Program-made: the position numbers and the translations under genes
Part shown: positions 672 to 30,377 of the stretch, piece by piece
How positions within the stretch are numbered: the first letter of the stretch is position 1
Layout of the letters: each line of letters starts with the position of its first letter
Notes under the pieces: generated by a model
What the model saw: the letters and a program-made list of their open reading frames with translations, nothing else
The model's database searches: none
What the model was told of the DNA's origin: nothing
Assembly: GCA_944389095.1 (NCBI GenBank)
Contig: CALXLC010000052.1
Span: forward strand, 9,240-73,239
From: an uncultured Alphaproteobacteria bacterium
Lineage (GTDB): Bacteria; Pseudomonadota; Alphaproteobacteria; RF32; CAG-239
Direction: 5' to 3'
DNA: 64,000 nt

Positions 672-726
672 AAGATGCTCCCAGAAGTTAAATTTGGGCT
701 TAGTTTACGACGAAGGCTCAAAAGAA

Positions 727-1630: not shown

Positions 1631-1632
1631 TT

Positions 1633-12923: not shown

Positions 12924-13529
12924 ATGCAACTCATTGCCATTACGGGATCTATCGGCTGCGGAAAGACAACGCTGGCAAAGATTGTCAAAGGCCTCGGGTA
13001 TACGGTTTTTGACATTGACGGATGGGTGCGCCGGATTTATTTTCAGAAAGATTTTATTAAGGTCATTGCCGAAAGTTTTCCCGGGACGGTTTCTAACGGT
13101 CAGGTTAACAAAAGGATGATTCGGGATATTGTTTTTTCCGATCATGAAAAGCTGGCGTATCTGGAAGGGCTGATACATCCCTTTTTGAAGGAGACGCTTA
13201 AGCAGGTTATCCGCAGAAACGCCGGCTGCCGGGATTTGTTTTTTATAGATATAGCCTTGCTTTTTGAAATGGGCTGGGATAAATACTGTGATTTTATTAT
13301 TGTTGCCGATGTTGATTATGAAATCCAAAAACAACGGGTTATGAAAAGAGATAAGGTTTCGGCCGATGATTTTGACAAGATTAACAATGTGCAGATGGAT
13401 AATAAGAAAAAAATAGAATTGGCCGATATTGTTATTAATACGAATAAGCCGAAAAACCTGTTAAGGTCCGAACTGATAAAAATAATTGAAAGATTGGAAG
13501 CTGCCGATGGTCAGAGAAATTGTTTTTGA
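12924..13529 (+). CDS. coaE: dephospho-CoA kinase
   Basis: N-terminal IAITGSIGCGKTT P-loop; about 200 aa; sits in the coaE-dnaQ order. Confidence 0.9.
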   Translation: MQLIAITGSIGCGKTTLAKIVKGLGYTVFDIDGWVRRIYFQKDFIKVIAESFPGTVSNGQVNKRMIRDIVFSDHEKLAYLEGLIHPFLKETLKQVIRRNAGCRDLFFIDIALLFEMGWDKYCDFIIVADVDYEIQKQRVMKRDKVSADDFDKINNVQMDNKKKIELADIVINTNKPKNLLRSELIKIIERLEAADGQRNCF

Positions 13530-14217
13530 TACCGAAACAACCGGATTTGAATATGCCAAGGGCGATCGGTTGATTGAAATCGGTGCGGTCGAACTGGTTA
13601 ATCACATGCCGACCGGCGTGACGTATCATCAATATATTAATCCGGAGCGGGAAGTTCCCGAAGAGGCTTTTAAGGTTCACGGTTTGTCTTATGACTTTTT
13701 GAAGGATTACCCGACTTTTGACAAAGTTGCCGATGACTGGCTGACGTTTATCGGCGATGCAACGCTGGTGGCGCATAATGCTTCGTTTGATATCAATTTT
13801 GTGAATTATGAGCTTAAACAGCTTGGTAAACCTGAATTGTCCTGGGACAGGGTTGTCGATTCTCTGGAAATAGCCCGTTTATTGTTTCCGGGAGCGCGCT
13901 GCAGCCTTGATGCATTGTGTAAAAGGTTTAATATTGACAATTCCAATCGAACTCTGCACGGCGCCTTGCTGGACGCCCAGTTGCTGGCGGAAGTTTATCT
14001 GGAACTTTTGGGTGGTCGCGAACCGAGCCTGTTGTTGGATTCCAAAAAGAAAAAGGCTTCCGCCGCCGGTGATGCGGAAGCCGGAATCGTCCGGAACTTC
14101 AGAGAACCGCGTTTGTTTCCTCTGAGCGAGGAAGAACTTAAAGCGCATCATGATTTTTTGAACAGTAAAATTAAAGGCGCTTTGTGGCTGGCAACCGAAG
14201 AGGTTTCCGATTCTTAG
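13507..14217 (+). CDS. dnaQ: DNA polymerase III epsilon subunit (3'-5' exonuclease)
   Basis: Contains ExoI (VFDTETTG), ExoII (AHNASFD) and ExoIII (HGALLDAQLLAEVY). The start was chosen at ATG 13507; the alternative is 13486. Confidence 0.9.
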   Translation: MVREIVFDTETTGFEYAKGDRLIEIGAVELVNHMPTGVTYHQYINPEREVPEEAFKVHGLSYDFLKDYPTFDKVADDWLTFIGDATLVAHNASFDINFVNYELKQLGKPELSWDRVVDSLEIARLLFPGARCSLDALCKRFNIDNSNRTLHGALLDAQLLAEVYLELLGGREPSLLLDSKKKKASAAGDAEAGIVRNFREPRLFPLSEEELKAHHDFLNSKIKGALWLATEEVSDS

Positions 14218-14543
14218 TCGTTATCCGAAATAAAGTCTTCTTCGATGTCCAGTTCTTCACTGTCCGGGGTTTGGGTATCGGTAATGCTTTCCATGACAGC
14301 TGCCGGCTGTTGCATATTGTCAGAAGGTTGAGCGGCGGCCGGTTGTTGCGGAGCATTTTCCGGTTGTGCCTGGGCAGGGGGCTGAGTGGCCGGAACCGTG
14401 GCGACGGCTTCGTATCCTTGTTCCATAATCAGCAGATTGTTTGAATCCGGGTTTCCGACGGCCGTTCCCTGATTTTGAGCTTGTGCATCGCAGCCCATTA
14501 AGGCCAAGGCCGAAAGAGACAATAAGGAAATGATTTTTTTCAT
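14214..14543 (-). CDS. hypothetical lipoprotein, Gln/Pro/Ala-rich
   Basis: Signal peptide with lipobox LALMGC. Low-complexity QPPAQAQPENAPQQPAAAQP segment and an acidic C-terminus. Confidence 0.55.
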   Translation of the reverse strand: MKKIISLLSLSALALMGCDAQAQNQGTAVGNPDSNNLLIMEQGYEAVATVPATQPPAQAQPENAPQQPAAAQPSDNMQQPAAVMESITDTQTPDSEELDIEEDFISDND

Positions 14544-14637
14544 GTTTACATCCTCTTAAATGTTGTTGTGCCTTTTTTATATAAGCGCGGTTCGGTTTTA
14601 TTCAATGAGTTAAGAAACTCTCCATCTAAGAATAAGG

Positions 14638-14665
14638 TTGACGGCGTCCGCGGTTTTGGTAATAT
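14638..14665 (+). promoter_or_regulatory. sigma70-like promoter for the HAD gene at 14705
   Basis: TTGACG, a 16-nt spacer, then TAATAT, about 40 nt upstream of the GTG start. A GGAG lies 9 nt before the start. Confidence 0.4.
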
Positions 14666-14704
14666 GATTTAGTTTGATAGTAATTTTTTATGGAGTAATC
14701 AGCC

Positions 14705-15391
14705 GTGGTTTACGGGCGAAGAGTGATAATTTGGGATTTGGATGATACCTTATATTTGCGGACGGCAGAGTGGGCCGATTTGCTTGATACGGCCATGGCT
14801 AAAGCCCTGGTTGAGGATTTGGGCGTGCCGTTGTCGTTTAAGGAGGCTAAAGAAAAAGTTACCGAATCTTATCGAATTTACCGTAATGGCGGCGAAATTT
14901 TTTATCGTGATTACGGGGTCGATCCGGCAAAGTTATTTTATGCTTATCATCAGAGAAAACCGGTTGAAAAAATTACGGCTTATCCGGGACTTTTGGATAA
15001 AATCAAGAAGATTCCGGCTGAGCAATATATTTTTACGGCCAGCGACAGGTATGCTTCCGAAAAAATTTTAAAACACATCGGGTTGTATGACTATTTTAAA
15101 GACCGTTTTTATTCGGTAGAGGATTTCGGGGTTTATAAAAAGAACGAAAGTGCCGATGTTTATCGTCAATACTGCAGAAAAATAGGTGTTTCTCCGGAAG
15201 AGTGTGTTTTTGTTGACGACAGTTATTCTAATTTGGAATTTGCCAAAGAAGTCGGAATGATTACGGTGCGGATTTATTATAATAATAATTCGGCCAAGGA
15301 TAAGACATATATTGATTATGCTTATAAAGGCGTGGAAAGTTTTATTGATGCCATTCTGGCATCATCTCAGGGAAACGTGGCGGCTCAATAG
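14705..15391 (+). CDS. HAD-superfamily hydrolase (pyrimidine 5'-nucleotidase-like)
   Basis: Contains motif I (IWDLDDTLY), FTAS, and the late VDDS motif. Apparent GTG start. Confidence 0.65.
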   Translation: MVYGRRVIIWDLDDTLYLRTAEWADLLDTAMAKALVEDLGVPLSFKEAKEKVTESYRIYRNGGEIFYRDYGVDPAKLFYAYHQRKPVEKITAYPGLLDKIKKIPAEQYIFTASDRYASEKILKHIGLYDYFKDRFYSVEDFGVYKKNESADVYRQYCRKIGVSPEECVFVDDSYSNLEFAKEVGMITVRIYYNNNSAKDKTYIDYAYKGVESFIDAILASSQGNVAAQ

Positions 15392-16060
15392 TCAGCGGCA
15401 GATTTGTTTTTCGTGTTCATAGTTGGCGCTGTTGTCAAGTTTGGCTTGCTCCAAAAGCATTTCTTTTTTGAAGACATTTACAAGAGGGGCTATTTTGCGA
15501 TTGTAGCTTTTGATGAGAAGTTCTGTCGCGGCATCGGCTTCGGAAAGGCTGCCGATATGCCGGGGCGGGACCGTGCCGGCAATTTTTTTTATGGCATCTT
15601 GGAACAGCGGGATAAAATAGTCCAGAGAAGATTTGTTTATTTGTTGGTGAGTTTGTTCATGCCGCAGCACGACATTGTACTCACAACTGTCCCGGGGCAG
15701 TTCGTTTGAAATGTAGATTACCGGATCTACAAAGCCGATAAAAACGTGGAGTTTGTCCGGAATAACACAAATATCATAGTCACTGCGGATTTCCGTGTAG
15801 GTTTCCAAATCTATTTTCAGTTTGACGTTGACGGTTGCCAGGCCCGAGGCAAACAGGCCTTTTTCTATCGTATTATAATTTTTGGCAATTTGGGTGATAC
15901 CCTGATTATCCAAACTGGTGTCATAACGAAGCTTTCCGTATGAAGATCCAAAAATTATCTGCGGCACGGATTGGTATTCAGAACAGTCAGCTGCTTGTGA
16001 TGTTGTTGAAAAAAAATAAAAAAAAGAGCTGATTGTTAATATAAAAAAAAGTTTTTTCAT
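15392..16060 (-). CDS. secreted hypothetical protein with an HExxH motif (possible DUF922-type Zn-peptidase)
   Basis: N-terminal signal peptide (FFSTTSQA/AD) and a single HEQTH motif. The family guess comes from the motif alone. Confidence 0.45.
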   Translation of the reverse strand: MKKLFFILTISSFFYFFSTTSQAADCSEYQSVPQIIFGSSYGKLRYDTSLDNQGITQIAKNYNTIEKGLFASGLATVNVKLKIDLETYTEIRSDYDICVIPDKLHVFIGFVDPVIYISNELPRDSCEYNVVLRHEQTHQQINKSSLDYFIPLFQDAIKKIAGTVPPRHIGSLSEADAATELLIKSYNRKIAPLVNVFKKEMLLEQAKLDNSANYEHEKQICR

Positions 16061-16109
16061 ATAATTTATTTTACAAGATATTGGTTAAATTATAGTTACA
16101 GGTGCGGAA

Positions 16110-16571
16110 ATGAAAAAATACTGGGGTATCGGATTGGGAATGGCTTTGGTGGTTGTTCCCGTTTATTTCAGCGCTCAGGGCGGTGAGCCGTATGTCCGCA
16201 AACAGATAGAGCCGGATTTTTTTATTCCCGAAAGTGCTAAACAGCCACCGGAAAAGCTTCCGGTTCCCCGCTATTTGCAGGGGGAGGCGGAAACCATAAA
16301 GGAAGCTCACCGTACGGCTCCCGTCAAAACTTCTCCGGTGGCTTCAGAAAATGAAGATGTTCCCGAGTTTCAGCAAAAATATGATGCTTACAATCAAGAT
16401 TTGGAGCATATCGGGCGTACGGGCAAAATGCCTTATAATGTCGAGTTGGAACAAGATTTGAAGGTTATGAATTCCAATGACGAGATTATTGTTGAAAAAA
16501 AGCCTTATCAACAACGCAATACAAAGGCTGAGTTTGATAAGGCTTTAGAAAAAAGTTTACAGCAGAATTAG
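16110..16571 (+). CDS. hypothetical exported protein
   Basis: N-terminal hydrophobic signal/anchor (GIGLGMALVVVPVYFSAQG). The remainder is charged and unrecognisable. Confidence 0.45.
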   Translation: MKKYWGIGLGMALVVVPVYFSAQGGEPYVRKQIEPDFFIPESAKQPPEKLPVPRYLQGEAETIKEAHRTAPVKTSPVASENEDVPEFQQKYDAYNQDLEHIGRTGKMPYNVELEQDLKVMNSNDEIIVEKKPYQQRNTKAEFDKALEKSLQQN

Positions 16572-17047
16572 GATTCAACGGCGTAAATGTCTTTGACGCT
16601 CCATCTGCCGTCCTGCATTTTCATGACATAAATGATATTGCCGTTGCACAGACCGAACCAGTTTCCGTTACAGGTGCTTTGGGTATAAACTTCTACCGTA
16701 TCGTCCGGCAGCGGTTTTAATTTTGTGATTTTATAGGATTGAGATGTCGGCCGCTGCAGGCTGTCATCTTCCATAAAAACGAATTTCGGCATGAATTTGG
16801 TGTTTTCGGCACATTCGGAAAATTGCGGATTAATCGTGCATTTGATGCTGAGGTTGATGGCGCAAATCATCATGCTGTCTGAATTGCAGCCGGGTTCCAG
16901 CGTGTTGATGTCAAAAGAATAAATTTCATCTCCGGTGACGGCATCGGGCTGCGGGGCTTTTTGTTCGGCGGAAGTTGAGGTGTCCGAGGCGTCGGAACAG
17001 GCCGTCAGCAGCAAAAAAGGAATTAAAAATATAAGAGATTTTTTCAT
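16568..17047 (-). CDS. hypothetical lipoprotein, Cys-rich
   Basis: Signal peptide with lipobox LLTAC and six further Cys residues. No family recognised. Confidence 0.55.
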   Translation of the reverse strand: MKKSLIFLIPFLLLTACSDASDTSTSAEQKAPQPDAVTGDEIYSFDINTLEPGCNSDSMMICAINLSIKCTINPQFSECAENTKFMPKFVFMEDDSLQRPTSQSYKITKLKPLPDDTVEVYTQSTCNGNWFGLCNGNIIYVMKMQDGRWSVKDIYAVES

Positions 17048-17876: not shown

Positions 17877-18461
17877 ATGAAAACTCACCAAAAGGGCGCG
17901 ACAATGCTTGAAGCGCTGGCGACATTGATGATTATTTCGGTTCTGTCGATTTCTGGCATCCGGCTTATCGGCAGTTTGTTTGCCATGTTCAGGCAGAATG
18001 TGGTGGCCAATGAAATAAAAGAAATCAAAAAAAGTATTCAGGATCGTTTTGCTTATGCCGGTGATTATCGGGAGCTGGAGGGAAAATCAGCCGATGAGGT
18101 GGCAGAAATGCTTTTGGAAGAAAAGGTTATTCCCAATCAGATGTCGGTTAACGGCAAAATTTATCACCGGTTGGGCGGCGAGGTGACAATAGAACTTTCG
18201 GATTATTCTGATACGGGATTGTATTTTGATGTTACTTTCAAAGATTTAACGACGCAGGGGTGTCTTAATCTGAGTCAGATTGACTGGGTTATCAATCAGA
18301 ATTCCGATTTGATGCGGCTGATTATCAACGATAAAACTTTTGTGCTTCCGGTCGGGAACAATAAAGACAAAACCGAGGGCGTGTTGCCGGTTCCGATGAG
18401 CGAGGCGGTCAAAGACTGTAAAAGCAGCAGTGATAATGATATAACCTGGACTTTTCAATAA
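17877..18461 (+). CDS. type IV pilin/pseudopilin-like protein
   Basis: Class III leader MKTHQKG/ATMLEALATLMIISVL, with Gly at -1 and Glu at +5 before a hydrophobic helix. Two Cys residues lie in the C-terminal third. No pil or gsp genes are nearby. Confidence 0.55.
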   Translation: MKTHQKGATMLEALATLMIISVLSISGIRLIGSLFAMFRQNVVANEIKEIKKSIQDRFAYAGDYRELEGKSADEVAEMLLEEKVIPNQMSVNGKIYHRLGGEVTIELSDYSDTGLYFDVTFKDLTTQGCLNLSQIDWVINQNSDLMRLIINDKTFVLPVGNNKDKTEGVLPVPMSEAVKDCKSSSDNDITWTFQ

Positions 18462-18478
18462 ACAACGGAGAATCTGCG

Positions 18479-18901
18479 GTGATAAAAGTTAACGACGTCA
18501 ACAAAACCGGGGAACTGAATCAATCAAAAGCCGCCAGGAGAACTTCCGGCGGGGAAAGTTTTGCCTCATATCTCAACAAAACCATGCCCGGAGGCAACAG
18601 TCCGGTAAACGCAAGCAGCAATATTTCGGTTGCCGATGCTATTTTTGCCACCCAAATGATTAATGGCGAAGAGGAACGCGCCAAAAAGCAAAAAATGCTG
18701 AAAAGAGGCAGTCTGCTGCTTGATAAACTTGAAGAAATCAGAGACGCGCTGCTGGTTGGTTATATCGGGGCAGACAAGTTGATAGAAATATCCCGTCTGG
18801 TTAAGGAAAACCGTCCGGAAACCGATGATGTCAGGCTGAATGAAATCATGGACGAAATCGAACTGCGGGTCGAGGTTGAACTGGCCAAGCTTACAAAATG
18901 A
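18479..18901 (+). CDS. fliX: flagellar class II assembly regulator FliX-like
   Basis: 140 aa. The Gly/Ser-rich N-terminus, central ..RAKKQKMLKRGSLLLDKLEEIRDALLVG.. and C-terminal EIELRVEVELAKL match my recollection of FliX. It sits next to dksA as in other alphaproteobacteria. GTG start. Confidence 0.6.
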   Translation: MIKVNDVNKTGELNQSKAARRTSGGESFASYLNKTMPGGNSPVNASSNISVADAIFATQMINGEEERAKKQKMLKRGSLLLDKLEEIRDALLVGYIGADKLIEISRLVKENRPETDDVRLNEIMDEIELRVEVELAKLTK

Positions 18902-20078: not shown

Positions 20079-21248
20079 ATGTCTGTTGAAACAATCGTTT
20101 ATGAGCAAAAAAACGGAAAAGTCAAAATTGCCGGATTGTCCGGCGGGCGGCTGAGTGAGCTGGAATTTTTTGATGAGAACGGTGTGGCAGAGGGCAATAT
20201 TTATTTGGGTCGGATTACCAAGAAAATTGAGCTGGCCAACGGCAAGACCGGGTACTTTGTCAATATCGGGGACAGCCGGGATGCTTTTATAAATGCCGAA
20301 GAGTACGGTTTGGAAGATTTGGTTGCGGCAGAAGGTCAGACAATCGTCGTTCAGGTGGCGCAGGAGCAACGTGCGGAAAAAGGTGCACGGCTGGTACGTT
20401 CTTTGCAGCTGCCGGGTCACAGTCTGGTTTATTGTCCGTATAAATTGACGGTTGAGGCTTCCTCCAGAATAGAAGACAGGCAAAAGGCCGAAGAATATAA
20501 AAATCTGGCCATGGAGAATACAACGGGGCAGGAAGGATGGATTATCCGGACGGCAGGCGTTAATACGCCGGCAGAAAAGTTTGTGGCGGAAATGGCTGTT
20601 TTAAGGAAAAATTTTGAAGATATTCTGGATATGTCCGAGAAAGTGTCGGCTCCCTCTCTGCTGAAGGGAAAAACGAATCCTTTGTTTGATTATATTGCCC
20701 GGCATCGGAACAGTTTGCGTAAAATTATTGTCAATGCACGGACAATTCAGGAAGAAATTACCCGCCGTTTTGGCGATGATTTGTTAATCGGCATTGTTCC
20801 GGGGCCTTTTGATGACTTCGGATTAGAGGAGGCTATCGGCGAAGCTTTACAGAAGGAGATCAGACTTAAAAGCGGCGGAAGGATTTTTATAGAAGAAACC
20901 AAGGCCTGCGTCGCAATTGATGTTGACAGCGGCGAAGACCGGGGAAGCGGAAATCTTGGACGATTAAATGCAGAAGCTGCTTATGAAATTGCCCGGCAGA
21001 TAAAACTACGCAATCTTTCGGGGAAGATTATTATTGATTTTGCCGGTTTGCCCGAAATCCGCTATCTGAACAGCACCATAGAAATTCTGGAGCAGGAACT
21101 CAGAAACGATTATGTCAAAAATACGGTGTTCGGTTTGAGCCGGGCCGGTTGTGTCGAGATTGTCAGGATGCGGCGGCGTCCGTCTTTGCGGGATTTGCTG
21201 ACAACGGAATGCACTTGTTGTCAAGGAACCGGGAGAGTTGAAAAATGA
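20079..21248 (+). CDS. rng: Rne/Rng-family ribonuclease (short RNase G-like)
   Basis: Contains an S1-like N-terminus ([17 protein letters not shown]), the catalytic CVAIDVDSG and GKIIIDF. 389 aa, which is shorter than E. coli RNase G. Confidence 0.8.
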
Positions 21249-21436
21249 AGTGCCCCATCTGTAAAAAAGAAGTTGAAGATATGAAATATCGGCCGTTTTG
21301 TTCCAAACGGTGTGCGGATATTGATTTGGGCAACTGGTTTAACGAAAAGTATCGGTTTGAGGCGACCCGGATAGACGAATCCGAATGGGAAACAATCGAA
21401 TCGGAAGAAGAAAACGACAGCCGGGAAAAGAATTAG
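21245..21436 (+). CDS. yacG: DNA gyrase inhibitor YacG (zinc finger)
   Basis: Contains CPICKK...[16 protein letters not shown]. Overlaps the rng stop. Confidence 0.85.
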
Positions 21437-21877
21437 CTATTTTAGGCTTATTTTTATGAGGCAGGAGAGCAAATCCCGGAAAGACGGGACTTCCAGCCGG
21501 GAGCGAAGGTTGACGCGGTCCAGGACCGCAAAAACACGGCTTTGACCGTCATATATCAGCAGGCTTTCAGGAAGTCTGCCTATAATCAGTTTACCGCGAA
21601 AATAATCATACTTGGCATAAAGTTTGTTAATCTGGGTTAAATCCGGGAAAATATATTGTTTTTCCATACGTTGCTGCGGTGCCGTTCCCATCAGTTCGGT
21701 GCCGTTGAAAATGATTCCGTTGGTTTGCAGCAAAAACTCCCGATAGTCTTCCGGAATTTCGGCAAATCCCTGTTTGGTAAGAAATTTATTGGTTTGAAGA
21801 ATGTCATTTTCGGCGCTTTCCGAAAAATGAACGCTGTATTTGGCGCGGATAATCTGTTCAACCAGGTTTTTAATCAT
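21437..21877 (-). CDS. SMI1/KNR4 (SUKH-1)-like immunity protein
   Basis: Contains IPEDYREFLLQTNGIIFNG, the hallmark LPxDYxxFLxxxNG motif, and a C-terminal ..VFAVLD....SFRDLL. The ATG at 21877 overlaps the upstream stop (ATGATTAA). Confidence 0.5.
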   Translation of the reverse strand: MIKNLVEQIIRAKYSVHFSESAENDILQTNKFLTKQGFAEIPEDYREFLLQTNGIIFNGTELMGTAPQQRMEKQYIFPDLTQINKLYAKYDYFRGKLIIGRLPESLLIYDGQSRVFAVLDRVNLRSRLEVPSFRDLLSCLIKISLK

Positions 21878-22475
21878 GATATATTCTCCCGTCAAACCAG
21901 GGAAGATAAATTTTTTTGTAAGTTCGCAGGTAATTATTTTCAATCTGCATGTCTATCAGGCGGTGGACGAGGTCATGGCGCGGATGAGTCTGAATCAGAC
22001 AGAGATTGTTAAAATCCAAGGTTCCGCCGAAATCAAAGGGAATTTTCATGTGGACATCAAAATTTTCTGGTGCAATGCTGCGGCGCAAAAGTTTGATGTC
22101 CGCTTTGGTCAGTCCGGCAGTTTGACAGTCATTGATGTGAGAGTATCCCAAAAGTTTTAAAAATACCTCCCTGATTCGACGGTATTCAATGTATCCCGAA
22201 TCCATTTCCTGCCAATTTTGCGGTTCGTAAGAAGCTTCGCGGAGGGTAAAGTTTTTTAAATTGAATTCTGTCAGGCGTTTTTCCAAAATTCTAAGCATTT
22301 CCTCCGGACCGGGCGGTGCCAAGGAGGCTGAATCTTCGGCCGCAATATCCTGATTTTTGACCATTTCAGACGGCGGCAGACTATTGGGCAGCAAAAGATC
22401 GTTATAAGCTTCCTGCAACGTTTTTGCCGCTTTTGGCCGTTTTTTGTTAAGTATTCGGTTTGACCATTCCCACAT
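21870..22475 (-). CDS. HNH (beta-beta-alpha-Me) nuclease-domain protein, colicin/pyocin DNase-like
   Basis: The C-terminal FDVHMKIPFDFGGTLDFNNLCLIQTHPRHDLVH aligns with colicin E9 [30 protein letters not shown]. No signal peptide. The start is ATG 22475 or GTG 22481, 5-11 nt after the T4CP stop. Confidence 0.5.
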   Translation of the reverse strand: MWEWSNRILNKKRPKAAKTLQEAYNDLLLPNSLPPSEMVKNQDIAAEDSASLAPPGPEEMLRILEKRLTEFNLKNFTLREASYEPQNWQEMDSGYIEYRRIREVFLKLLGYSHINDCQTAGLTKADIKLLRRSIAPENFDVHMKIPFDFGGTLDFNNLCLIQTHPRHDLVHRLIDMQIENNYLRTYKKIYLPWFDGRIYHD

Positions 22476-22486
22476 CGGCACTTCCG

Positions 22487-24712
22487 TCAGGCATTTTGGG
22501 GATTATCCGTTTCATCGTCTTCAAATTCGGAATCGTCATAGTCTTCGTTAGGATTGTAATCAATGCCTAATTTGGCCAGCATATCGTCGTTGATATCTTC
22601 GCGCTGGGCAACAATCCAGTCCGGAACATTCGGTGCCGGCGGAAGATTGCGCAGGGCTTTCATTTTTTTATCGAGGTACCAACGCGGCGAATCCGCCATA
22701 ATAGGACGGTCAATGTAGCTTTGCATCAAGACCACCTGTTTAAGCAGCGGCAGGCTCAACAACTGAGTTGTCGAAATAACCGAAACTCCCTGCAGCTGAT
22801 AGCTGACGTTTTTGGCGAAAGGATTTGTTCCTTTGCCGAGGCCGCCTTCGTTTTTGGAGAAAGAGGTGGTTTGTACGGTTTTGTTGCCAATCATTTTGGA
22901 AAAGCGCTGGGCTGTTTGTTCGTTGTTTTGAGATAAGATGATTTTGCAGGCCGTGGTGGAAATGACCGTTTCCAAATCGTCTTTTCCGTATTTTCCGGAG
23001 ATTTGACCGAGGTCTTGTCCGATAAGCAGGTAAGATACTTTTTGTCCGCGTCCGACCGCCGGTCCGTCGATAACGGCCTTTAATTTAGGCATGGTCGGAA
23101 ACTCGTCCAAGACAAACAGGCAAGGGAAGGGGCCCATTTGTCCATCGGTGGCATTGACGGATTTGGGTGTATTGGCGATGAGGTAAGAGGACATCAGGTC
23201 AATAAATGTTCCCGAAATGACGCTCAGGGCGCGGGCATCTACCTGATTGACGGACAGGTAAACCGAAATGGGTTTGTATTCACCGGTAATCGGGTCTTTA
23301 AGGCCGCGGAGGTCTTTGAAATTAATGTCACTGAAAGAGGTGCGGGCAACAACAGCCGAGTTTTTGAAAATACCGATGCCGGCAAATGCCGTGGACATAA
23401 CTGAACCGCGCTCTTTGTCAGGCATGGAACTCAACTGGCTCAATTCAACAATACACCGGGGAGAATAACCGAATTTGCGGGCTTCTTCAATGGCTTCTTC
23501 CAGCAAATCGCGCATGGGGTCGGCCATGGCCGCCATTTGATCGCCTTCGTCCAGACGGCGTTTGATGTCCTGAGATTGTTTAATCTGAGCTTCGGTAATC
23601 CATTCCAAAATCATGGCAATACAAGCTTCCCGGCCAATCCATTTTTCCGGCAGAAGGGCCCAGGAACCTATAGGCAGATAGTTGTCTATGGTTAAATTAT
23701 TGCTGCGGAGATTTTGGACGGCGCGCGCGGCCATCGGGTCATGCATTTCCAGATAGTAGCCTTCCAGCACTTTTTTGTCTTCTTCATCCAGTTTGCCTTC
23801 ATAAACGCGGCCGATGAAATAATCATTGGCGCGGGCTTTTTCGCATTTTGAAACGATGAAGTGGATGAAACCGGTCAAAGCGGCACGTCCGGTTTGAGAC
23901 CAGTGCGGGTCGGCTCCGCCTTTGGGGTCTTCCACAAGCGTGTTGCACATAGAGTCAACGTACATATCGCGAGCCGGCCCGGGAGCGGGAACGGCGGTGG
24001 GAGACAACGGATTCCAGCTCGGGTAGTAGATTCCTTCGGCGGGATTGTCTTCCATACCCCAGTTGATAATGAAAACAGGACCGACTTTTCCCCGGGCGCC
24101 GGAAGTTTGAAAACACAATTCCGGTTTGGGATCGTTGACAATGATGCTCAGACCGGGTGAGTTGAAAATTGTCGGAACAACCACGCCGGCGGTTTTACCG
24201 GTTCCCGGAGGTGCGCAGCATAATGTGGAGAGGGTTTCTTTCAGCAGGAGCAGGCGGCCGTTGAATTTGCCGACAACCTGGCAAAAACCGTCAAATCCGA
24301 GCAATTCCATTTTTTTGATGTCTTTTTCGGTGGCCAGTCGGGCGGAACCGTGAACGTTTGACTGGAATCGGTAAGGATTGGTAATCAGTCCGGTAATCAG
24401 TCCGGCCGGAAAGCTGATAAACGGCAGAATCGGAACCCACAGGCTGAAAGAGAAATCGCCGTGATAGTTGAGCAGTTGTTTGAACCAAGCCCAGTATCTG
24501 GAATAGAGATATCCCGGTTTGTTGAAGACCATTGAGAAGTATTTGCCAACGTCGTCAATGGAATCCTTGGAAATTCCGGTTCCCAGCAAATAGCCGAGCG
24601 GCATGGCGGCAAGCGCCAAAATGATTGTTACAACAATGGAAATAATGACGGTAATCACCATCCAGCGGACGGCATTGTCATATTCTTCCCACTCTTCTCC
24701 TCTTTTACTCAA
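22487..24712 (-). CDS. virD4: VirD4/TraG-family type IV secretion coupling protein (T4CP)
   Basis: 741 aa with N-terminal TM helices, HGSARLATEKDI, Walker A (CAPPGTGKTAGVVVP), Walker B (LFVLDEFPTMPKL), IGQD, and an acidic tail (NEDYDDSEFEDDETD). TTG start with AAGGA 8 nt upstream. Confidence 0.85.
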   Translation of the reverse strand: MSKRGEEWEEYDNAVRWMVITVIISIVVTIILALAAMPLGYLLGTGISKDSIDDVGKYFSMVFNKPGYLYSRYWAWFKQLLNYHGDFSFSLWVPILPFISFPAGLITGLITNPYRFQSNVHGSARLATEKDIKKMELLGFDGFCQVVGKFNGRLLLLKETLSTLCCAPPGTGKTAGVVVPTIFNSPGLSIIVNDPKPELCFQTSGARGKVGPVFIINWGMEDNPAEGIYYPSWNPLSPTAVPAPGPARDMYVDSMCNTLVEDPKGGADPHWSQTGRAALTGFIHFIVSKCEKARANDYFIGRVYEGKLDEEDKKVLEGYYLEMHDPMAARAVQNLRSNNLTIDNYLPIGSWALLPEKWIGREACIAMILEWITEAQIKQSQDIKRRLDEGDQMAAMADPMRDLLEEAIEEARKFGYSPRCIVELSQLSSMPDKERGSVMSTAFAGIGIFKNSAVVARTSFSDINFKDLRGLKDPITGEYKPISVYLSVNQVDARALSVISGTFIDLMSSYLIANTPKSVNATDGQMGPFPCLFVLDEFPTMPKLKAVIDGPAVGRGQKVSYLLIGQDLGQISGKYGKDDLETVISTTACKIILSQNNEQTAQRFSKMIGNKTVQTTSFSKNEGGLGKGTNPFAKNVSYQLQGVSVISTTQLLSLPLLKQVVLMQSYIDRPIMADSPRWYLDKKMKALRNLPPAPNVPDWIVAQREDINDDMLAKLGIDYNPNEDYDDSEFEDDETDNPQNA

Positions 24713-24739
24713 AGTCGTTCATCCTTTTTTATCGCCAGA

Positions 24740-26029
24740 TTACGCAATGCTGCGAATCAGTTTTTTTATCTTTTCAAATTTATCCCGGTCGATTTTTCCG
24801 TCGGCATCATCCAAAGCTTTGGCGAAAAGCCGTATTTCTTTAGGTGTGCCGCGGTCAATACGGGTGACGTTGATTTTCATGTCGTTCCAGATTTCGAACA
24901 TGTCTTCAGCATTAATAATATTGCCGATTTGCTCGATAACATAAGCTTCTACTTTGAAGTTTAAATCCGCTTCGGCTAATTTATCGTTAAGAATCAGCCG
25001 GGCCACGTCAATTTTACGAACCGGGGAAATGCGGTGAGAGCTTTCGGAAAACCAAAGGGGTTCTTCGTCGTTAAAGCGTTCTTCGTCAGCCAGCCAGTCT
25101 CCGGGTTCTTTATCGCTGAGGCAGAGGCATATCTGGGTTGCGGAGACGCCGATAAAATCAATGAGCGTATTTTTGATGGTTGCACCGGTAATGACTTCGT
25201 AACCTTTTTGTTTGAGAACTTCAAGGGTGGAATTGGAACTTCCTCTGGTCGGTTTGGTGCTTTCGGAAGCAGGAGCAGGGGTCGATTTGTTGTTTTTGCC
25301 GTTGCGGCCATTATTTTTAGCCGGTCGTTCGGGCGGCGGTGCGACGGGGGTGTCTTCGGGTTTGGGTGTTTCACTGCTTTTGTCGTCAAACAAATCAAAG
25401 TCAAAATCGGTCGGTTCGTCGTCAAATTGGAACAGGGAATGGTCAAATTCAATCGGTTTTGAGGCCGGGGCCGCTGCGGCAGCGGTTGAGGGTTTAACCC
25501 GCGGCATGGCAGTCGGTGCAGATAATCCCGAAGACGGTACGGCCGGTTGCGCCGGGAGGGCATAAGCTCCGTCTTCCAACGGCGGACGAACACTTTTGGG
25601 GCGGATTTCTTTGTAGGATTTTTTCTTTTTTACGACTTTGACGCTTGCTGTGTTGGCTATGGATTTTATAGGTTTTTCAAAAATTTTGTTGATGAATTTG
25701 AGCGGAATTTCCAGAACCCAGCCAAAAATTTTGCCCCATTTAATCATGCTGAGAGCGGCCAGGCCGGTCAGCCACAGCGGAATGAAGGTTAAAATAATCA
25801 AAACAAAAGCCCATTCTTTGGGATCATCAATAACCCATCCCGAAAGCCAGAGATTCCAAGCGTGTTCCCAGTGAGAAGTCCGCAAAATGTCAAAACGCCA
25901 GTTGGTCAGCAATATTACGCGCACACCTTCCAGAAAGATAATGCTCCAGAAGATGCCGACGAAGGCGATGCGCATTAATATTAATAAAGGTTTCAAAGAA
26001 ATTTTACTCCTTGCTGCCGTCTGCGGCAA
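24740..26029 (-). CDS. hypothetical membrane protein: 2-TM Trp-rich module, Pro/Ala and acidic-aromatic linker, C-terminal globular domain
   Basis: The N-terminus is paralogous to the next gene upstream. The linker contains EFDHSLFQFDDEPTDFDFDLFDD. The start is uncertain: TTG 26029, or TTG 25996 (MKPLLIL), which lies 9 nt after AAGGAG. Confidence 0.6.
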   Translation of the reverse strand: MPQTAARSKISLKPLLILMRIAFVGIFWSIIFLEGVRVILLTNWRFDILRTSHWEHAWNLWLSGWVIDDPKEWAFVLIILTFIPLWLTGLAALSMIKWGKIFGWVLEIPLKFINKIFEKPIKSIANTASVKVVKKKKSYKEIRPKSVRPPLEDGAYALPAQPAVPSSGLSAPTAMPRVKPSTAAAAAPASKPIEFDHSLFQFDDEPTDFDFDLFDDKSSETPKPEDTPVAPPPERPAKNNGRNGKNNKSTPAPASESTKPTRGSSNSTLEVLKQKGYEVITGATIKNTLIDFIGVSATQICLCLSDKEPGDWLADEERFNDEEPLWFSESSHRISPVRKIDVARLILNDKLAEADLNFKVEAYVIEQIGNIINAEDMFEIWNDMKINVTRIDRGTPKEIRLFAKALDDADGKIDRDKFEKIKKLIRSIA

Positions 26030-26060
26030 TTATAACATAAAATAGGTTAACAACTGTTTA

Positions 26061-26549
26061 TTAGAATTTACTGGTTTCGGATTCTATTTTTTTCTGAATT
26101 TCTTCGCGGATGTTTTTGACTTCACGCGGGGATTCCGGTTTGATGGATTCTATTTGATTTTTTACGGCTTCCACAGCTTCCCGGCTTGATTTCAGATTGC
26201 GGAGAATAATACGTTTGGAATCGTGTCCGTATTTGTTGATAATATGCCGGTTGTAAGCATTGACCGGGAAAAGAAGAATAGCCGCATAATCGACGCGAGT
26301 CAACCTTTTCCAGCCCCAGAGCCAGAGCGGAATTACCATTATCAGCATAAACAAAAACAAATAATCCGGCGCGGTTTTGATGACACCGCCGATTTGCCAA
26401 AAGTCACGAATGGTGTGCCAGCTTGAGGCCGAGAAAAAACTGAAGTTCCAGAGGGCAATAAACACAAGGTTGACGACCGGCAAAAAAACGTAAGTCCATC
26501 CGGCACCGATGAGCAATGTTCTGACAAGTATGAATATTTTGCGCAACAT
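26061..26549 (-). CDS. hypothetical membrane protein (2-TM Trp-rich module paralogous to the 24740..26029 N-terminus)
   Basis: LWNFSFFSASSWHTIRDFWQIGGVI...VIPLWLWG here compares with NWRFDILRTSHWEHAWNLWLSGWVI...FIPLWLTG in the neighbour. The ATG lies 3 nt after the upstream stop, with GGAGG 9 nt upstream. Confidence 0.6.
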   Translation of the reverse strand: MLRKIFILVRTLLIGAGWTYVFLPVVNLVFIALWNFSFFSASSWHTIRDFWQIGGVIKTAPDYLFLFMLIMVIPLWLWGWKRLTRVDYAAILLFPVNAYNRHIINKYGHDSKRIILRNLKSSREAVEAVKNQIESIKPESPREVKNIREEIQKKIESETSKF

Positions 26550-26552
26550 TTC

Positions 26553-27989
26553 TCAGCGGCCTCCGCGGTCTTTGCCGGGATTAATGTTTGACGGTTTGTT
26601 TTTTTCGTCGGTATTTTTTTTGACCGGTTGGTAGTTTTCAAAGTAATTTCGGCTTTTTTCGTTTTCTCTCTGGCGCTGCTCCAGGATTTCCATTGTGCTG
26701 TTTAAGTCATTCAGCTCCTGGCGGCTTTTGTCGCTTGTGGGTAAAGTATTTACCGCCTCACTCATAAGCTGCTCGCGGTTTTTTTCTTTGGGAATTCCGT
26801 AAAGTGTGCGGTCCAGCTTGTCTAAAACGGGTGTGGAAGGATTGTGTCCTTTCTCATCATAATTGCCGCTTTTGATATTGGCGCGGGCTTCTTTGAAAGC
26901 CTTTTGGCTGGTTTCGAGAACTTCTTTGAAGTCTTTGTATTCACTGGTTCCGTCATTTATTTTTTTGAGTTCCGCCAATGCCAGTTTATGACCCTCTTCA
27001 AGGTAAAGCTGAAAGTTTTTGTTGAGGTCTTTACCTTCAAAAGCATCGACGTCTTTGCTTTGCAGCTGCATCATCTTGGCAAAAGCGTAGTTGTTGGCGA
27101 TGTGATTTTTCATGCTGAAAAGGGTTGCGTGGTTTAAAATGGTTTCGGCAACCGTTGCTTTGGCCTGTTCTTTGTCAAAGTTTTCGCCCTGCTCGGCTAT
27201 TTTGACATTGGCAGCCAGAGTGGTTATCAATTTGTATATCTGGCTGTCTTTTGACAAGGGGGCATCTTTTTCGGTAATTTCAATTTCATCCAATTTGCCG
27301 TCAATGGCTGCGGCAGCAATAGCGTAAAGCTGTTTTGAGTTGTCAATGACAGGATTTTGTTCTTTGTTTTTGCTGTCAATTTGAAGCAGCTGTTTGCTCA
27401 GCCGGGTCGTGCGGTCATCATTGGGGCTGAAGCCGAATTCGCTTTCCGGAACGCGGTTTTGTTGCATGGTTTGATTGATTTTTTCTCGTTCCCGCGTAAG
27501 GTCTTCCCATTTTTCTCGCGCATTGTTCCAAACATATTTTCCGCCGTCGCCGATTTTGTTGCAGCCCCAGGCAAGAATCCGATAGGCTGCCAGACCGCCT
27601 AACCCGCAGACTTTGTCTCCGGCCCAGGCCGCAGAAGCCAAAACAACGTCTTTCATTAAAAATTCGATGAAATCGCCCTGTTGGATATCAAATTTGCCTT
27701 TTTCCGGATCGCCGTAATCGGGATCTTTGAAGGGTTTTTCCAGTTTTCCGGCAGCACGGTTGCGTTTTGCGGGAGGCGGCGTTTGCGGTTGTCTGGTCGG
27801 ATCTTGGAGATAGAGGTTTCGATCGCTGTCAACGGTTGCCGAATTGTCGGAATCGACAAAGGCAGAATTGGTGTTGGCATCAATGCCGGCAGAGTTGTCC
27901 CGGGTGACGTGCAAAGGATTGCCGCCGCCAAAACGAGCTCGTTCTACTTTTTGTTGCTGTCCTTTTCTTAAATCTTCCGCTGCCGACAT
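26553..27989 (-). CDS. hypothetical protein (478 aa; hydrophobic hairpin plus long Lys/Glu-rich helical region)
   Basis: Long uninterrupted ORF in the operon. Contains the segment VVLASAAWAGDKVCGLGGLAAYRILAWGC. No recognisable domain. Confidence 0.55.
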   Translation of the reverse strand: MSAAEDLRKGQQQKVERARFGGGNPLHVTRDNSAGIDANTNSAFVDSDNSATVDSDRNLYLQDPTRQPQTPPPAKRNRAAGKLEKPFKDPDYGDPEKGKFDIQQGDFIEFLMKDVVLASAAWAGDKVCGLGGLAAYRILAWGCNKIGDGGKYVWNNAREKWEDLTREREKINQTMQQNRVPESEFGFSPNDDRTTRLSKQLLQIDSKNKEQNPVIDNSKQLYAIAAAAIDGKLDEIEITEKDAPLSKDSQIYKLITTLAANVKIAEQGENFDKEQAKATVAETILNHATLFSMKNHIANNYAFAKMMQLQSKDVDAFEGKDLNKNFQLYLEEGHKLALAELKKINDGTSEYKDFKEVLETSQKAFKEARANIKSGNYDEKGHNPSTPVLDKLDRTLYGIPKEKNREQLMSEAVNTLPTSDKSRQELNDLNSTMEILEQRQRENEKSRNYFENYQPVKKNTDEKNKPSNINPGKDRGGR

Positions 27990-28067
27990 GGTAACCTCGC
28001 TTGAAAATATTTATTTCTTTCAGAATAACATTTATTTCGTGTTTTGTCTATATTTTTCGCTATTTTT

Positions 28068-29033
28068 TTAGGCTTTCAGTTTTTTCATGAATTTGCCGAT
28101 TTCTTTGTTGATTTTGATGCCGTCTTCCGGTTTGGGTTTTATCATACCGAAAAAGCGGGCGGGAATCTTTTCTATCAGAATCGGGGAAAAAGTAGCCGGG
28201 TTGTTTTCGAGCATTTTTTGTGCGCCGACAGGGTCTTTGCGGGCGGTTTTAAAGTAGTTGCCGATCAGCCTTTCGGCGTCAATCGGAAATTTTTGTTTTT
28301 TGATTGCTTCAATATAACGCTGCATTTTTTCTTTGCGTTCCTGATGCTCTTCATAGAGACGGCGTTCAATTTTTCGCTTTTCGGCTTTGGCCTTGCGTTG
28401 GAAGTAGGCTATTTCGCAGCCTTCCAGTTCTATTAAAATTTCCACATAAGAAATCAGAGCCAGCTGGAGGCTTTCGTTGGTTGTTTTTTCCGCAAACTCC
28501 AGAATCTGTTCGTCGCTGGCCTGAGCCGGGAGACTGGCCAGGCGTGTCGGCTGGCTTTGGAGCATGACATCCCAGCCGAGCAGAACGTTTTGATTAATCA
28601 TTTGACCGCGGGAAGGACGGTAGCGGGGGTATAAGTCTTCCGCCGTAAGGGTAAAAGCCGGCGTTTCCATATCGGCCTGTTGGGCCAGAACTTTTACGGC
28701 TTCGGTGAAATTGTGATAGGCATCGTAAAGCTGGCGCTCTTCCGCGTAAAGACGCTGGACGTATTCGTCAACGTTGTCGTTCAGCTGAGCGGCGAGAGGT
28801 TTTTTGTTTTTTTCAAGCTCAAGGGTTTCTTCCTGAGTTGCGTCGCAGTCTTCCAACTGACTGGAAATAAACTCGTCCAGAAGACGATCAAAGTCGTCTT
28901 TATCTTCGTTTTTGGCCGGTAAAGGCTGGTTGGGTTCGTTATCAACCGTCAAATCAATGGTGCTGGGGATGAAGTCGGAGTTTAAAAACTCTTCTACTTC
29001 GGGATGAATATCATTGTTTGTTTCTGCAGACAT
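28068..29033 (-). CDS. hypothetical cytoplasmic protein (321 aa, acidic N-terminus, basic C-terminus)
   Basis: Uninterrupted ORF 10 nt downstream of the first operon gene. No recognisable domain. Confidence 0.55.
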   Translation of the reverse strand: MSAETNNDIHPEVEEFLNSDFIPSTIDLTVDNEPNQPLPAKNEDKDDFDRLLDEFISSQLEDCDATQEETLELEKNKKPLAAQLNDNVDEYVQRLYAEERQLYDAYHNFTEAVKVLAQQADMETPAFTLTAEDLYPRYRPSRGQMINQNVLLGWDVMLQSQPTRLASLPAQASDEQILEFAEKTTNESLQLALISYVEILIELEGCEIAYFQRKAKAEKRKIERRLYEEHQERKEKMQRYIEAIKKQKFPIDAERLIGNYFKTARKDPVGAQKMLENNPATFSPILIEKIPARFFGMIKPKPEDGIKINKEIGKFMKKLKA

Positions 29034-29043
29034 GGCGGCCTCT

Positions 29044-29328
29044 TTAATGAACTGTTATTACGGTGTCGATTTCGGCACGGTTGCGGTTGTAAATAATCAG
29101 GCGATCCGGGAGGCCGCCGTTTTTGAGGAGGATGTACAGGTTTTCTCCTTCCGTTTTGAAATCGGCAATGCCGCTTCCCCGCGGTTGTTCCAGGTTATAA
29201 GATATTTCGTGGCGAGGGAGCGGTGTCCGGTTTTTTTTATAAATCACGCCCAGCAGGCTCAGGGTTCCGAAGACCAACAGAAAAGTCAGTATGACGACAA
29301 TTGTTTTTATCAGTTTGAGCTTATCCAT
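29044..29328 (-). CDS. hypothetical small single-pass membrane protein (first gene of the operon)
   Basis: 94 aa with N-terminal TM segment IVVILTFLLVFGTLSLLGVI followed by a beta-rich segment. Confidence 0.5.
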   Translation of the reverse strand: MDKLKLIKTIVVILTFLLVFGTLSLLGVIYKKNRTPLPRHEISYNLEQPRGSGIADFKTEGENLYILLKNGGLPDRLIIYNRNRAEIDTVITVH

Positions 29329-29339
29329 CGTTATCTCGC

Positions 29340-29367
29340 TTGCAAGTTTTGTTTTTAACCGTATTAT
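29340..29367 (+). promoter_or_regulatory. sigma70-like promoter for rluD; its -10 overlaps a perfect minus-strand TATAAT for the divergent operon
   Basis: TTGCAA, a 16-nt spacer, then TATTAT on the plus strand. The complement of 29363-29368 reads TATAAT toward the T4CP operon, but with no good -35. Confidence 0.4.
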
Positions 29368-29402
29368 AGAGCCGAAACATCCTTTTTTTTGAAATGTAAA
29401 AG

Positions 29403-30377
29403 ATGGCTGATACGGATAACTTTAACACAGTAATGGTTAACAAAAAATATAACGGCTGGCGAATCGATAAGTTTTTGAGCGTCGTTTTTCCGGATATTTC
29501 GCGTTCCCAAGTGCAGCGGTTGTTAAAAGAACAATGCGTAACCGTTGACGGCGAATCTGCCGGGGATGCCTCTTTTAAGGTCAAAGAAGGGCAAATTTGC
29601 GTCATGACAATTCCTGAGCCGGAAGAAGCCGTTCCGGAGCCTGAAAATATTCCGCTGGAAATTGTTTATGAAGACGAGGATTTGATTGTGGTTAATAAAC
29701 CGGCCGGCATGACGGTTCATCCGGCGCCCGGTTCACCGCGGGGGACGCTGGTTAATGCTTTACTGTATCATTGCCAGGGAAATCTTTCGGGAATCGGCGG
29801 TGTTAAGCGTCCGGGAATTGTTCACCGGATTGATAAAGATACGTCCGGTCTGCTGGTGGCGGCCAAAAACGATATGGCACATAAGGCCCTCTGTGCACAA
29901 TTTGCGGAACATTCCATTGAGCGGACTTATTTTGCCGCGGTTTTCGGTGTTCCGAATCCGTTAGAGGGACGAATTGAAGGCAATATCGGGCGCAGTCCGT
30001 ATGACCGAAAAAAAATGGCGCTGGTCAGAAAAAACGGTAAAGCTGCCGTAACCAATTATAAAACAACCGAAATTTTCGGCGGGCTGGCAAGTTTGGTCAA
30101 ATGTAATCTGGAAACAGGACGGACTCATCAGATACGAGTGCATCTGAGCAGTCTGGGGTGCAATCTTATCGGCGACCAGCTGTATGTTAAATCGAAAAAG
30201 ATAAACGAAAAAAGAGTTGCGACAGAGCTTCGCGATTATATTAATCATTTTCCCCGGCAGGCTCTTCATGCAAAGTCATTGGGTTTCCGGCATCCGAGAA
30301 GCGGCAGGCAGCTGCAATTTGACAGCGTTTTTCCCGCTGATTTTGAGGAGTTACTGCAAAAACTGCGGTGTTTGTAA
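29403..30377 (+). CDS. rluD: 23S rRNA pseudouridine synthase, RluA family (RluD-like)
   Basis: Contains an S4 domain at the N-terminus, the catalytic HRIDKDTSGLLV, and GRTHQIRVH. Confidence 0.9.
   Translation: MADTDNFNTVMVNKKYNGWRIDKFLSVVFPDISRSQVQRLLKEQCVTVDGESAGDASFKVKEGQICVMTIPEPEEAVPEPENIPLEIVYEDEDLIVVNKPAGMTVHPAPGSPRGTLVNALLYHCQGNLSGIGGVKRPGIVHRIDKDTSGLLVAAKNDMAHKALCAQFAEHSIERTYFAAVFGVPNPLEGRIEGNIGRSPYDRKKMALVRKNGKAAVTNYKTTEIFGGLASLVKCNLETGRTHQIRVHLSSLGCNLIGDQLYVKSKKINEKRVATELRDYINHFPRQALHAKSLGFRHPRSGRQLQFDSVFPADFEELLQKLRCL

Follow-up and report, generated by a model that had tools for sequence, protein, structure and literature searches.

The question raised by a 64,000-nucleotide stretch of DNA from an uncultured alphaproteobacterium (assembly GCA_944389095.1, contig CALXLC010000052.1; the whole stretch is termed here the window) is why two small genes that recall a DNase toxin and its immunity protein lie directly behind the gene of a type IV coupling protein (T4CP) of the VirD4/TraG family. 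A sequence-only reading of the window had taken the pair for an interbacterial HNH DNase effector, delivered by a type IV secretion system (T4SS), together with its cognate SUKH-type immunity protein. The analysis of the first protein, here termed Tox, of its SUKH partner and of their relatives favours a different answer, to which we give a probability of roughly 45%: the two would form an exapted, probably nuclease-dead toxin-immunity heterodimer that works with the T4CP as its cargo or adaptor.

The positions of the open reading frames (ORFs), the minus strand, the spacing behind the T4CP gene, the ATGATTAA overlap and the sequence motifs were all found as the sequence-only reading had given them. 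The T4CP gene ends in TGA and the ATG of tox at 22475 opens 11 nt later, while an alternative GTG at 22481, 5 nt past the T4CP stop, yields a protein of 203 amino acids (aa). Because all homologues begin with MW[ED]W, the ATG is regarded as the true start; residue numbering follows the 203-aa frame from the GTG. The C-terminus of the tox ORF includes FDVHMKIPFDFGGTLDFNNLCLIQTHPRHDLVH, the 146-aa ORF contains IPEDYREFLLQTNG, and an overlap of 4-8 nt between the two genes is also present in most close orthologues. As orthologues occur in more than 60 loci and the ratio of nonsynonymous to synonymous substitution rates (dN/dS) is low, both genes are real and not chance ORFs. Neither a hydrophobic stretch of the Sec type at the N-terminus of Tox nor a Pfam trafficking domain was found, in agreement with the earlier statement that the protein lacks a signal peptide and a trafficking domain.

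Direct scans of Tox returned no match in Pfam (none at E <= 1), NCBIfam or PADLOC, and matches at ~2e-5 to PHROG 31266 and 14497, both of unknown function. An AlphaFold2 (AF2) model built on 20 homologues is confident for residues 55-203 (predicted local distance difference test, pLDDT, ~85-97), while pLDDT falls below 50 for residues 1-23 and 28-52. DSSP assigned β-strands at residues 141-145 and 160-164 followed by a helix at residues 168-181, a unit modelled with pLDDT >90. Structural similarity search of the model with Foldseek against PDB and BFVD revealed nothing significant, with HNH-containing entries at the top of the lists (E 0.06-4), and among PDB sequences the family profile came closest to the HNH motif of the pyocin AP41 DNase, a sub-threshold match (E = 0.11) that served for register, not as proof. 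Ancestry was revealed by the relatives. An hmmsearch with the Tox family profile against 1.84 billion representatives (50% clustering) recovered 484 proteins, and the matches at ~1e-12 are C-terminal domains of LXG, Tox-PAAR-like, PT-HINT, PT-TG and Mu-portal fusion proteins. Each of these fusion relatives presents, over the same segment, a weak match to Pfam HNH (PF01844; 20-22 bits against a gathering threshold, GA, of 21.4), and hhalign aligned the close clade of Tox with the clade that carries the canonical His-His pair (HH) with a probability of 100% (E = 1.9e-42 over 140 columns). Because of this transitive, profile-to-relative homology the Tox domain is considered a genuine polymorphic-toxin HNH domain. 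As judged from these alignments Tox descends from an HNH toxin, within a subfamily that has no Pfam model of its own, and on this point the sequence-only reading is upheld. A homing or phage HNH was considered and rejected, since neither an intron nor an intein nor a phage context is present and the flanking genes are housekeeping genes.

The canonical HH relatives (P0105, P0152, P0103, P0140, P0108 and about 100 others) constitute in their own right a sizeable HNH toxin subfamily with the signature VHHK.P..DGG.N.F.NL. Its carriers are T6SS-, T7SS-, HINT- and phage Mu-type proteins; against the generic Pfam HNH model its members reach the threshold or come out only slightly to either side of it, and no dedicated toxin-family model matches them.

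The active site of Tox departs from that of its canonical relatives at a position that matters. In colicin E9, His103 is the general base, which activates the attacking water, and His102, His127 and His131 are metal ligands (bioRxiv 10.1101/2020.04.29.068437). The canonical relatives read P-x-G-[YWF]-[QN]-V-H-H-K-x-P-x-x-[DG]-G-G in this region, and Tox and the T4CP-linked relatives read P-E-N-[FY]-N-[VT]-H-[LIM]-K-[IV]-P-F-D-F-G-G, with no gap relative to the canonical sequence. The core residues of Tox are P138, E139, N140, H144, M145, K146, P148, D150, F151, G152, G153, N159, H169 and H173. In the register given by ungapped profile alignments to pyocin AP41 and 99 canonical HH-type relatives, H144 aligns with E9 His102, the first histidine of the pair, and M145 with the general base His103, a position that a variable hydrophobic residue occupies across the clade. 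The sequence-only reading had aligned Tox with colicin-type DNases at the general-base histidine and was off by one residue there, whereas the GG turn (G152, G153), the asparagine (N159) and the H-x3-H motif (H169, H173) align as it had claimed. Two consecutive histidines are present in 99 of the 165 aligned representatives, and a histidine followed by L, I, M, V, Q, R or K in 63, which are exactly the PEN-type, T4CP-linked sequences; in this register the canonical general-base histidine is absent throughout the T4CP-linked clade. G152, G153 and N159 are invariant in the close family, as are the metal-ligand positions H144, H169 and H173, which are lost in a minority of the distant clade members: P0092, P0101 and P0129 lack all three, and P0056, P0051 and P0174 lack one or two. 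The pI of the Tox domain is 6.7 and the clade median 7.2, against a median of 9.3 for the canonical HH relatives. One 301-aa protein (P0058, in locus L048) joins an N-terminal half near-identical to that of the T4CP-linked clade to a canonical, catalytically complete HH core; its contig is only 1.1 kb long, and the protein may be a toxin-tip recombinant that arose naturally or else a chimera of the assembly.

The partner protein belongs to the SUKH superfamily, as the sequence-only reading had proposed. It matches the NCBIfam profile NF038335 (YrhA) over residues 3-142 of 146 (2.9e-15, 56.4 bits, cutoff 55), and three Pfam models fall just below their thresholds: SUKH_6 (1.2e-5, 26.3 bits, GA 27), SUKH_5 (1.5e-4, 22.0 bits, GA 27) and SMI1_KNR4 (1.6e-4, 22.7 bits, GA 25.4). 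Orthologues score 36-65 bits against NF038335, and a YrhA/SUKH gene adjoins tox in all loci that have downstream sequence, including L052 and L060, whose partner proteins are also of the YrhA family. The gene that follows the PAAR-linked HH-type relative P0105, in a ClpV-VgrG-DUF2169 locus of a type VI secretion system, likewise encodes a YrhA-family protein (1.3e-32, 112.7 bits), and the ancestral unit therefore probably comprised an HNH toxin and a YrhA/SUKH immunity protein. This gene context suggests that the 146-aa protein is the former immunity partner of the Tox family. Searches of PDB sequences with the T4CP, the SUKH protein and the upstream protein up429 returned nothing usable.

The T4CP itself has strong Pfam support. 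It matches the Pfam models T4SS-DNA_transf (7.6e-56), TraG-D_C (6.5e-23) and TrwB_AAD_bind (2.2e-16) and displays N-terminal transmembrane segments, a Walker A motif (PPGTGKT), a Walker B motif (LFVLDEFPT) and an acidic C-terminal tail, while none of the NCBIfam VirD4/TraG equivalogs comes anywhere near its cutoff. When one genome per GTDB species was scanned, 34 loci were recovered, of which 33 are from uncultured (alpha)proteobacterial metagenome-assembled genomes (MAGs), such as Proteobacteria bacterium CAG:495 and Candidatus Scatocola, and one is a 3-kb contig binned as Lactobacillus sp. The order up321-up478-up162-up429-T4CP-tox-SUKH is intact in about 27 of the 34. Identities to the window proteins across these species are 79-91% for the T4CP, 36-61% for Tox, 34-48% for the SUKH protein and 59-65% for the neighbouring RNase G. 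In a single species (L031, 7436..9793) two cysteine-rich secreted proteins of 504 and 273 aa are encoded between the T4CP gene and tox.

Metagenomes were scanned with alignment A3, the broader alignment A2 being too diverse. Overall, T4CP, tox and SUKH genes are syntenic in about 50 loci of gut Alphaproteobacteria with T4CP identity down to 49%. A second clade comprises Tox relatives of 320-430 aa with a MWDWS start, a long proline/glutamine-rich (P/Q-rich) linker and an extra C-terminal tail; every metagenomic locus of this clade that has upstream sequence keeps the triad, with T4CPs 58-66% identical to that of the window. Of more distant relatives, P0052 follows a T4CP ~51% identical over the recovered fragment, and P0060 is preceded by a 33-aa fragment resembling a T4CP C-terminus, a match that is not significant (E = 0.27). 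P0092, which has no core histidines, is flanked by a T4CP of 49% identity and a YrhA protein, with genes for a small lipoprotein, VirB8, CagX/VirB9 and a 1022-aa protein downstream of the pair, and P0101, likewise without core histidines, lies between an up429-like gene and a YrhA protein. In L052 the series of lipoprotein, VirB8, CagX/VirB9 and 1022-aa protein stands directly after the SUKH gene (11560..17017), with a VirB10-like gene coming after VirB8 and VirB9, and in L060 two VirB8 paralogues (69..1756) lie 6-9 kb from the operon. This suggests that related lineages have a scattered, duplicated chromosomal T4SS layout recalling that of the Rickettsiales rvh system. The conserved synteny supports a functional link between the pair and the T4CP, as far as gene order can tell. 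The pair is single copy and followed by housekeeping genes, with the same orthologues in about 60 loci, among which neither strain-level toxin-tip replacement nor orphan toxin or immunity cassettes were found, P0058 being the only candidate recombinant. The tox/SUKH pair is vertically inherited, single-copy and non-polymorphic.

All three genes are under purifying selection, with dN/dS values of 0.011 (T4CP), 0.077 (Tox) and 0.122 (SUKH protein) in comparison with an orthologue of 90% identity. Over 37 loci the pairwise distances of Tox and SUKH proteins correlate with r = 0.91 (partial r 0.84 given the T4CP), whereas the partial r of Tox and T4CP given SUKH is 0.09. Pairwise distances are not independent of one another, and the co-variation is suggestive of, and fits, a physically interacting pair. 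Two side observations concern the rate of the T4CP gene: the protein is far better conserved across species (79-91%) than RNase G (20079..21248, plus strand; 59-65%), and the synonymous distance (dS) from L011 is 0.22 for the T4CP gene as against 0.50-0.73 for the two genes immediately downstream. Possible causes of this three-fold gap between neighbouring genes are recombination, gene conversion or codon constraint.

In the N-terminal arm of Tox the linker varies among relatives from ~40 to ~250 aa, and the MW[ED]W start is kept even in the 320-430-aa relatives with P/Q-rich linkers; within 1.05 Mb (window and loci) this start is essentially unique to Tox. In the long relatives (L007, L064-L067 and L074) an internal MWEWQ[FM]SQM[DE]LPNMDL, similar to the MWDWS start, opens the folded domain. 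The N-terminal MW[ED]W peptide may mimic the first helix of the folded domain, and it is the obvious candidate docking element of the protein.

According to the favoured reading, an HNH-toxin/YrhA(SUKH)-immunity cassette would have been captured beside a chromosomal VirD4-type gene in an ancestor of several gut alphaproteobacterial lineages and inherited together with the T4CP ever since. Tox would no longer cut DNA by the colicin mechanism and would still pair with the SUKH protein as a toxin-immunity heterodimer, in a ratio that the ATGATTAA coupling would fix. The complex would act as the dedicated cargo of the T4CP or as a substrate-recruiting adaptor, the MW[ED]W peptide and the flexible arm of variable length providing the tether or recognition element, and the SUKH protein would be a chaperone or cap rather than protection from a lethal DNase. 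That the pair evolves faster than the T4CP favours a cargo role; that it persists where the metal site has been lost entirely favours a structural or adaptor role. It is doubtful that the pair has been domesticated into an obligate T4CP partner, an adaptor or gate made up of the nuclease-dead HNH remnant and the SUKH protein that would dock on VirD4 via MW[ED]W and control export by a chromosomal, rvh-like T4SS.

Several points weigh against a nuclease-dead partner of the T4CP. The loss of nuclease activity is read from an alignment register, and the metal triad, Asn159 and the clade-specific, invariant P-E-N (E139, N140) are strongly conserved, which could mean that the site is rewired and active. 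An active toxin would need just what is seen of the immunity-type gene, which no locus has lost and whose translation is coupled to that of tox. The contact between Tox and the T4CP is putative, deduced from synteny, and in 6 of the 34 species loci no T4CP is encoded within 10 kb of the pair; no other T4SS gene was found in the 64-kb window (searched window, 28-57 kb). Finally, mean p-distances of 0.52 for Tox and 0.61 for the SUKH protein, against 0.27 for the T4CP, indicate that the pair evolves about twice as fast, and this looks more like a cargo or conflict module than a core machine part.

Some of these points are also those on which the original proposal, an active, T4SS-delivered interbacterial DNase with a protective SUKH protein, would stand, with H144 or E139 serving as base in a rewired site. 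The homology to bona fide toxin domains and their immunity family is clear, the close family never varies at H144, N159, H169 and H173, tox keeps its place behind the T4CP gene, and toxin and immunity proteins co-vary tightly while evolving faster than the T4CP. T4SS-delivered nuclease effectors with immunity genes are, moreover, known in Stenotrophomonas and Xanthomonas (PMC11253643, PMC6759196). Nevertheless, all 63 clade representatives carry L, I, M, V, Q, R or K at the general-base position in an ungapped register, and members devoid of any core histidine keep both the partner and the T4CP context. Neither strain-level polymorphism nor an orphan immunity array nor a known trafficking domain was seen in the loci, and a domain of near-neutral pI with a basic 'immunity' protein is the reverse of the colicin DNase/Im pairs. 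The toxin ancestry, the SUKH identity and the T4CP link of the sequence-only reading therefore stand, while its DNase activity is not borne out by a general base that is absent and a pair that is neither polymorphic nor basic in its toxin domain. An active colicin-like DNase with its immunity protein is the less likely because the general base is lost, metal histidines are lost in some members, and the pair is non-polymorphic and the domain not basic; we consider it unlikely, if the best of the alternatives.

A second alternative involves the gene upstream of the T4CP. The protein up429, which has 976 unnamed homologues, starts with four helices that form a membrane anchor; a ~140-aa disordered linker then leads to a C-terminal domain marked by a 30-residue motif, GDWLADEERFNDEEPLWFSESSHRISPVRK, that is nearly invariant. 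The top Foldseek matches of the AF2 model of this domain are all PD-(D/E)xK nucleases (Nt.BspD6I, BstEII, R2 RLE and Bax1; E 0.02-0.05), and its D-K-E motif is not the canonical (D/E)xK. The gene co-occurs with the T4CP and tox, and in L050 an up429-like gene is directly adjacent to tox. Two nuclease-fold remnants would in this way share an operon with a T4CP, a family related to DNA translocases (Pfam TrwB_AAD_bind), and in L050 the up429-like, tox and SUKH genes stand together without an intervening T4CP. The HNH remnant, with SUKH as its regulator, and up429 might accordingly bind or process DNA at the T4CP of a DNA-translocating T4SS, standing in for a relaxase-type factor. The Foldseek support for up429 is weak, its motif non-canonical and Tox not basic, and neither a relaxase nor an oriT nor mobile-element features were found at the locus, which is surrounded by housekeeping genes, so that this function is improbable. 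Least probable is a selfish, addiction-type toxin-antitoxin cassette or decaying relic that merely sits beside virD4 and has no role in secretion, for although toxin-immunity cassettes are mobile, standalone relatives occur in other contexts and the pair is found apart from any T4CP in the six species noted above, it stays beside the T4CP gene even in lineages where T4CP identity drops to 49-66%, purifying selection acts on both genes, the clade as a whole retains the N-terminal motif, and the genes are kept where the catalytic histidine is gone.

The features of the locus are collected in Table 1. Upstream of the T4CP gene and in the same orientation lie up429, up162, up478 and up321, all four without a Pfam match; up162 and up429 appear to be paralogous in their N-terminal membrane regions, as both queries match the same stretch in L058-L060. 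Downstream of the pair, on the opposite strand, are yacG, the RNase G gene, maf and dksA. A promoter and terminator scan of 20900..29600 gave counts equal to those of shuffled controls, and the operon boundaries therefore rest on gene spacing and synteny.

Table 1. Features of the T4CP-tox-SUKH locus in the window
Feature	Position	Strand	Basis or remark
T4CP gene, VirD4/TraG family, 741 aa	22487..24712	-	Pfam and motifs
tox, HNH-toxin-derived protein by profile homology, 201 aa	21870..22475	-	ATG 22475; no Pfam/NCBIfam/PADLOC match
MWEWS, invariant N-terminal pentapeptide of Tox (family motif M-W-[ED]-W-[ST])	22461..22475	-	Alignment of close family
Tox linker, residues 8-54, predicted disordered, poorly conserved	22320..22460	-	AF2 pLDDT
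Tox folded domain, residues 55-203, homologous to polymorphic-toxin C-terminal domains	21873..22319	-	AF2, hmmsearch, hhalign
Tox beta-beta-alpha-metal (HNH) core	21939..22070	-	DSSP and alignment register; codon positions checked
ATGATTAA overlap, SUKH start codon within the last codons and stop of tox	21870..21877	-	Translational coupling
SUKH gene, YrhA family, 146 aa, pI 9.0, putative former immunity partner	21437..21877	-	NCBIfam NF038335
up429, helical membrane anchor, disordered linker and C-terminal domain	24740..26029	-	Synteny, AF2
up162, small membrane protein, N-terminus paralogous to that of up429	26061..26549	-	Without Pfam match
up478, function not assigned, fast-evolving	26553..27989	-	Synteny
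up321, function not assigned	28068..29033	-	Synteny

Two further arrangements in the window were noted. A 674-aa protein (31933..33957, minus strand) presents a sub-threshold match to Pfam Pkinase (8.7e-7, 29 bits against a GA of 31.7) and is followed by a 158-aa protein of no assigned function (31457..31933, minus strand); both genes occupy the same place in a 61%-identity relative (L001). A PilS-domain, type IVb pilin-like protein (17877..18901, plus strand) is encoded directly upstream of FliX and DksA, an arrangement kept in L001-L005.

The pair may be compared with several known systems. Similar to the colicin and pyocin HNH DNases (E9/Im9, AP41 and S8), Tox displays a beta-beta-alpha-metal core with a GG hairpin turn, a structural asparagine and an H-x3-H motif, and its adjacent downstream partner gene is translationally coupled. 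In contrast, the general-base histidine is replaced by Met, Ile or Leu, leaving only the His102 equivalent of the pair, the partner is a SUKH/YrhA protein rather than an Im-type four-helix protein, the domain is not basic, and receptor-binding and translocation domains are lacking. The HNH/SUKH polymorphic toxins (Zhang et al. 2011; Zhang et al. 2012, PMC3482391) share a homologous toxin domain and immunity family, yet Tox carries no N-terminal trafficking or pre-toxin domain recognised by Pfam, NCBIfam or PADLOC, and the pair differs from them in being non-polymorphic, free of orphan immunity cassettes, syntenic with a T4CP and deprived of the catalytic histidine.

The effectors of the Xanthomonadales T4SS (X-T4SS effectors, X-Tfes), including the nuclease TfdA of Stenotrophomonas maltophilia, are likewise encoded in toxin/immunity-type bicistrons tied to a VirB/VirD4 system, and their C-terminal XVIPCD binds VirD4, recognition by which is the proposed recruitment step (PMC6759196, PMC11253643, PMC8740702). 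Tox differs in that its C-terminus is the HNH-like domain and its conserved short motif is N-terminal, in its degenerate active site and in the bacterial class in which it occurs. An XVIPCD was not seen in Tox, as far as the absence of a Pfam match of any kind at E <= 1 can tell. A precedent for a toxin HNH domain that has lost its catalytic residues and is kept for a non-nucleolytic role is the inactive GHH-clade HNH of animal teneurins (PMC3482391). Teneurins are, by contrast, eukaryotic cell-surface proteins with no immunity partner and no linkage to a secretion ATPase, and their HNH domain belongs to a different clade.

Accessory proteins and adaptors of T4CPs include DotM, DotN, IcmS-IcmW and LvgA, which work with DotL, CagZ with Cag-beta, and the VirE1 chaperone with VirE2. 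They are small proteins encoded beside the coupling protein or acting on it, and VirE1/VirE2 is a chaperone and cargo pair with overlapping genes. No sequence or fold similarity between them and Tox or the SUKH protein was seen, and an origin from a toxin-immunity cassette would be new; a DotN- or DotM-type identity of the T4CP neighbours was rejected, since no similarity was found. Neither an HNH/SUKH pair linked to a T4CP nor a T4SS in RF32/CAG-495-type bacteria was described in the literature that the searches returned.

Most of the gut Alphaproteobacteria considered here (CAG:495-like lineages) are known only from MAGs, and for approaching what their scattered chromosomal VirB/VirD4 system does, no better entry point is available than this pair, tied to the T4CP across the group. 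Defined along with it is an HNH toxin subfamily that current Pfam models miss, with 484 representatives at 50% clustering and T6SS-, T7SS- and phage-type carriers. If Tox were an active toxin, T4SS-mediated bacterial killing would extend beyond the Xanthomonadales, with recognition by an N-terminal motif and without an XVIPCD. If it is nuclease-dead, as the sequence indicates, a secretion ATPase would have taken over a toxin-immunity pair as its cargo, chaperone or adaptor, and, were the adaptor role to prove true, substrate recruitment by T4SSs would gain a module of a new kind, and toxin-immunity exaptation into a secretion machine a bacterial example.

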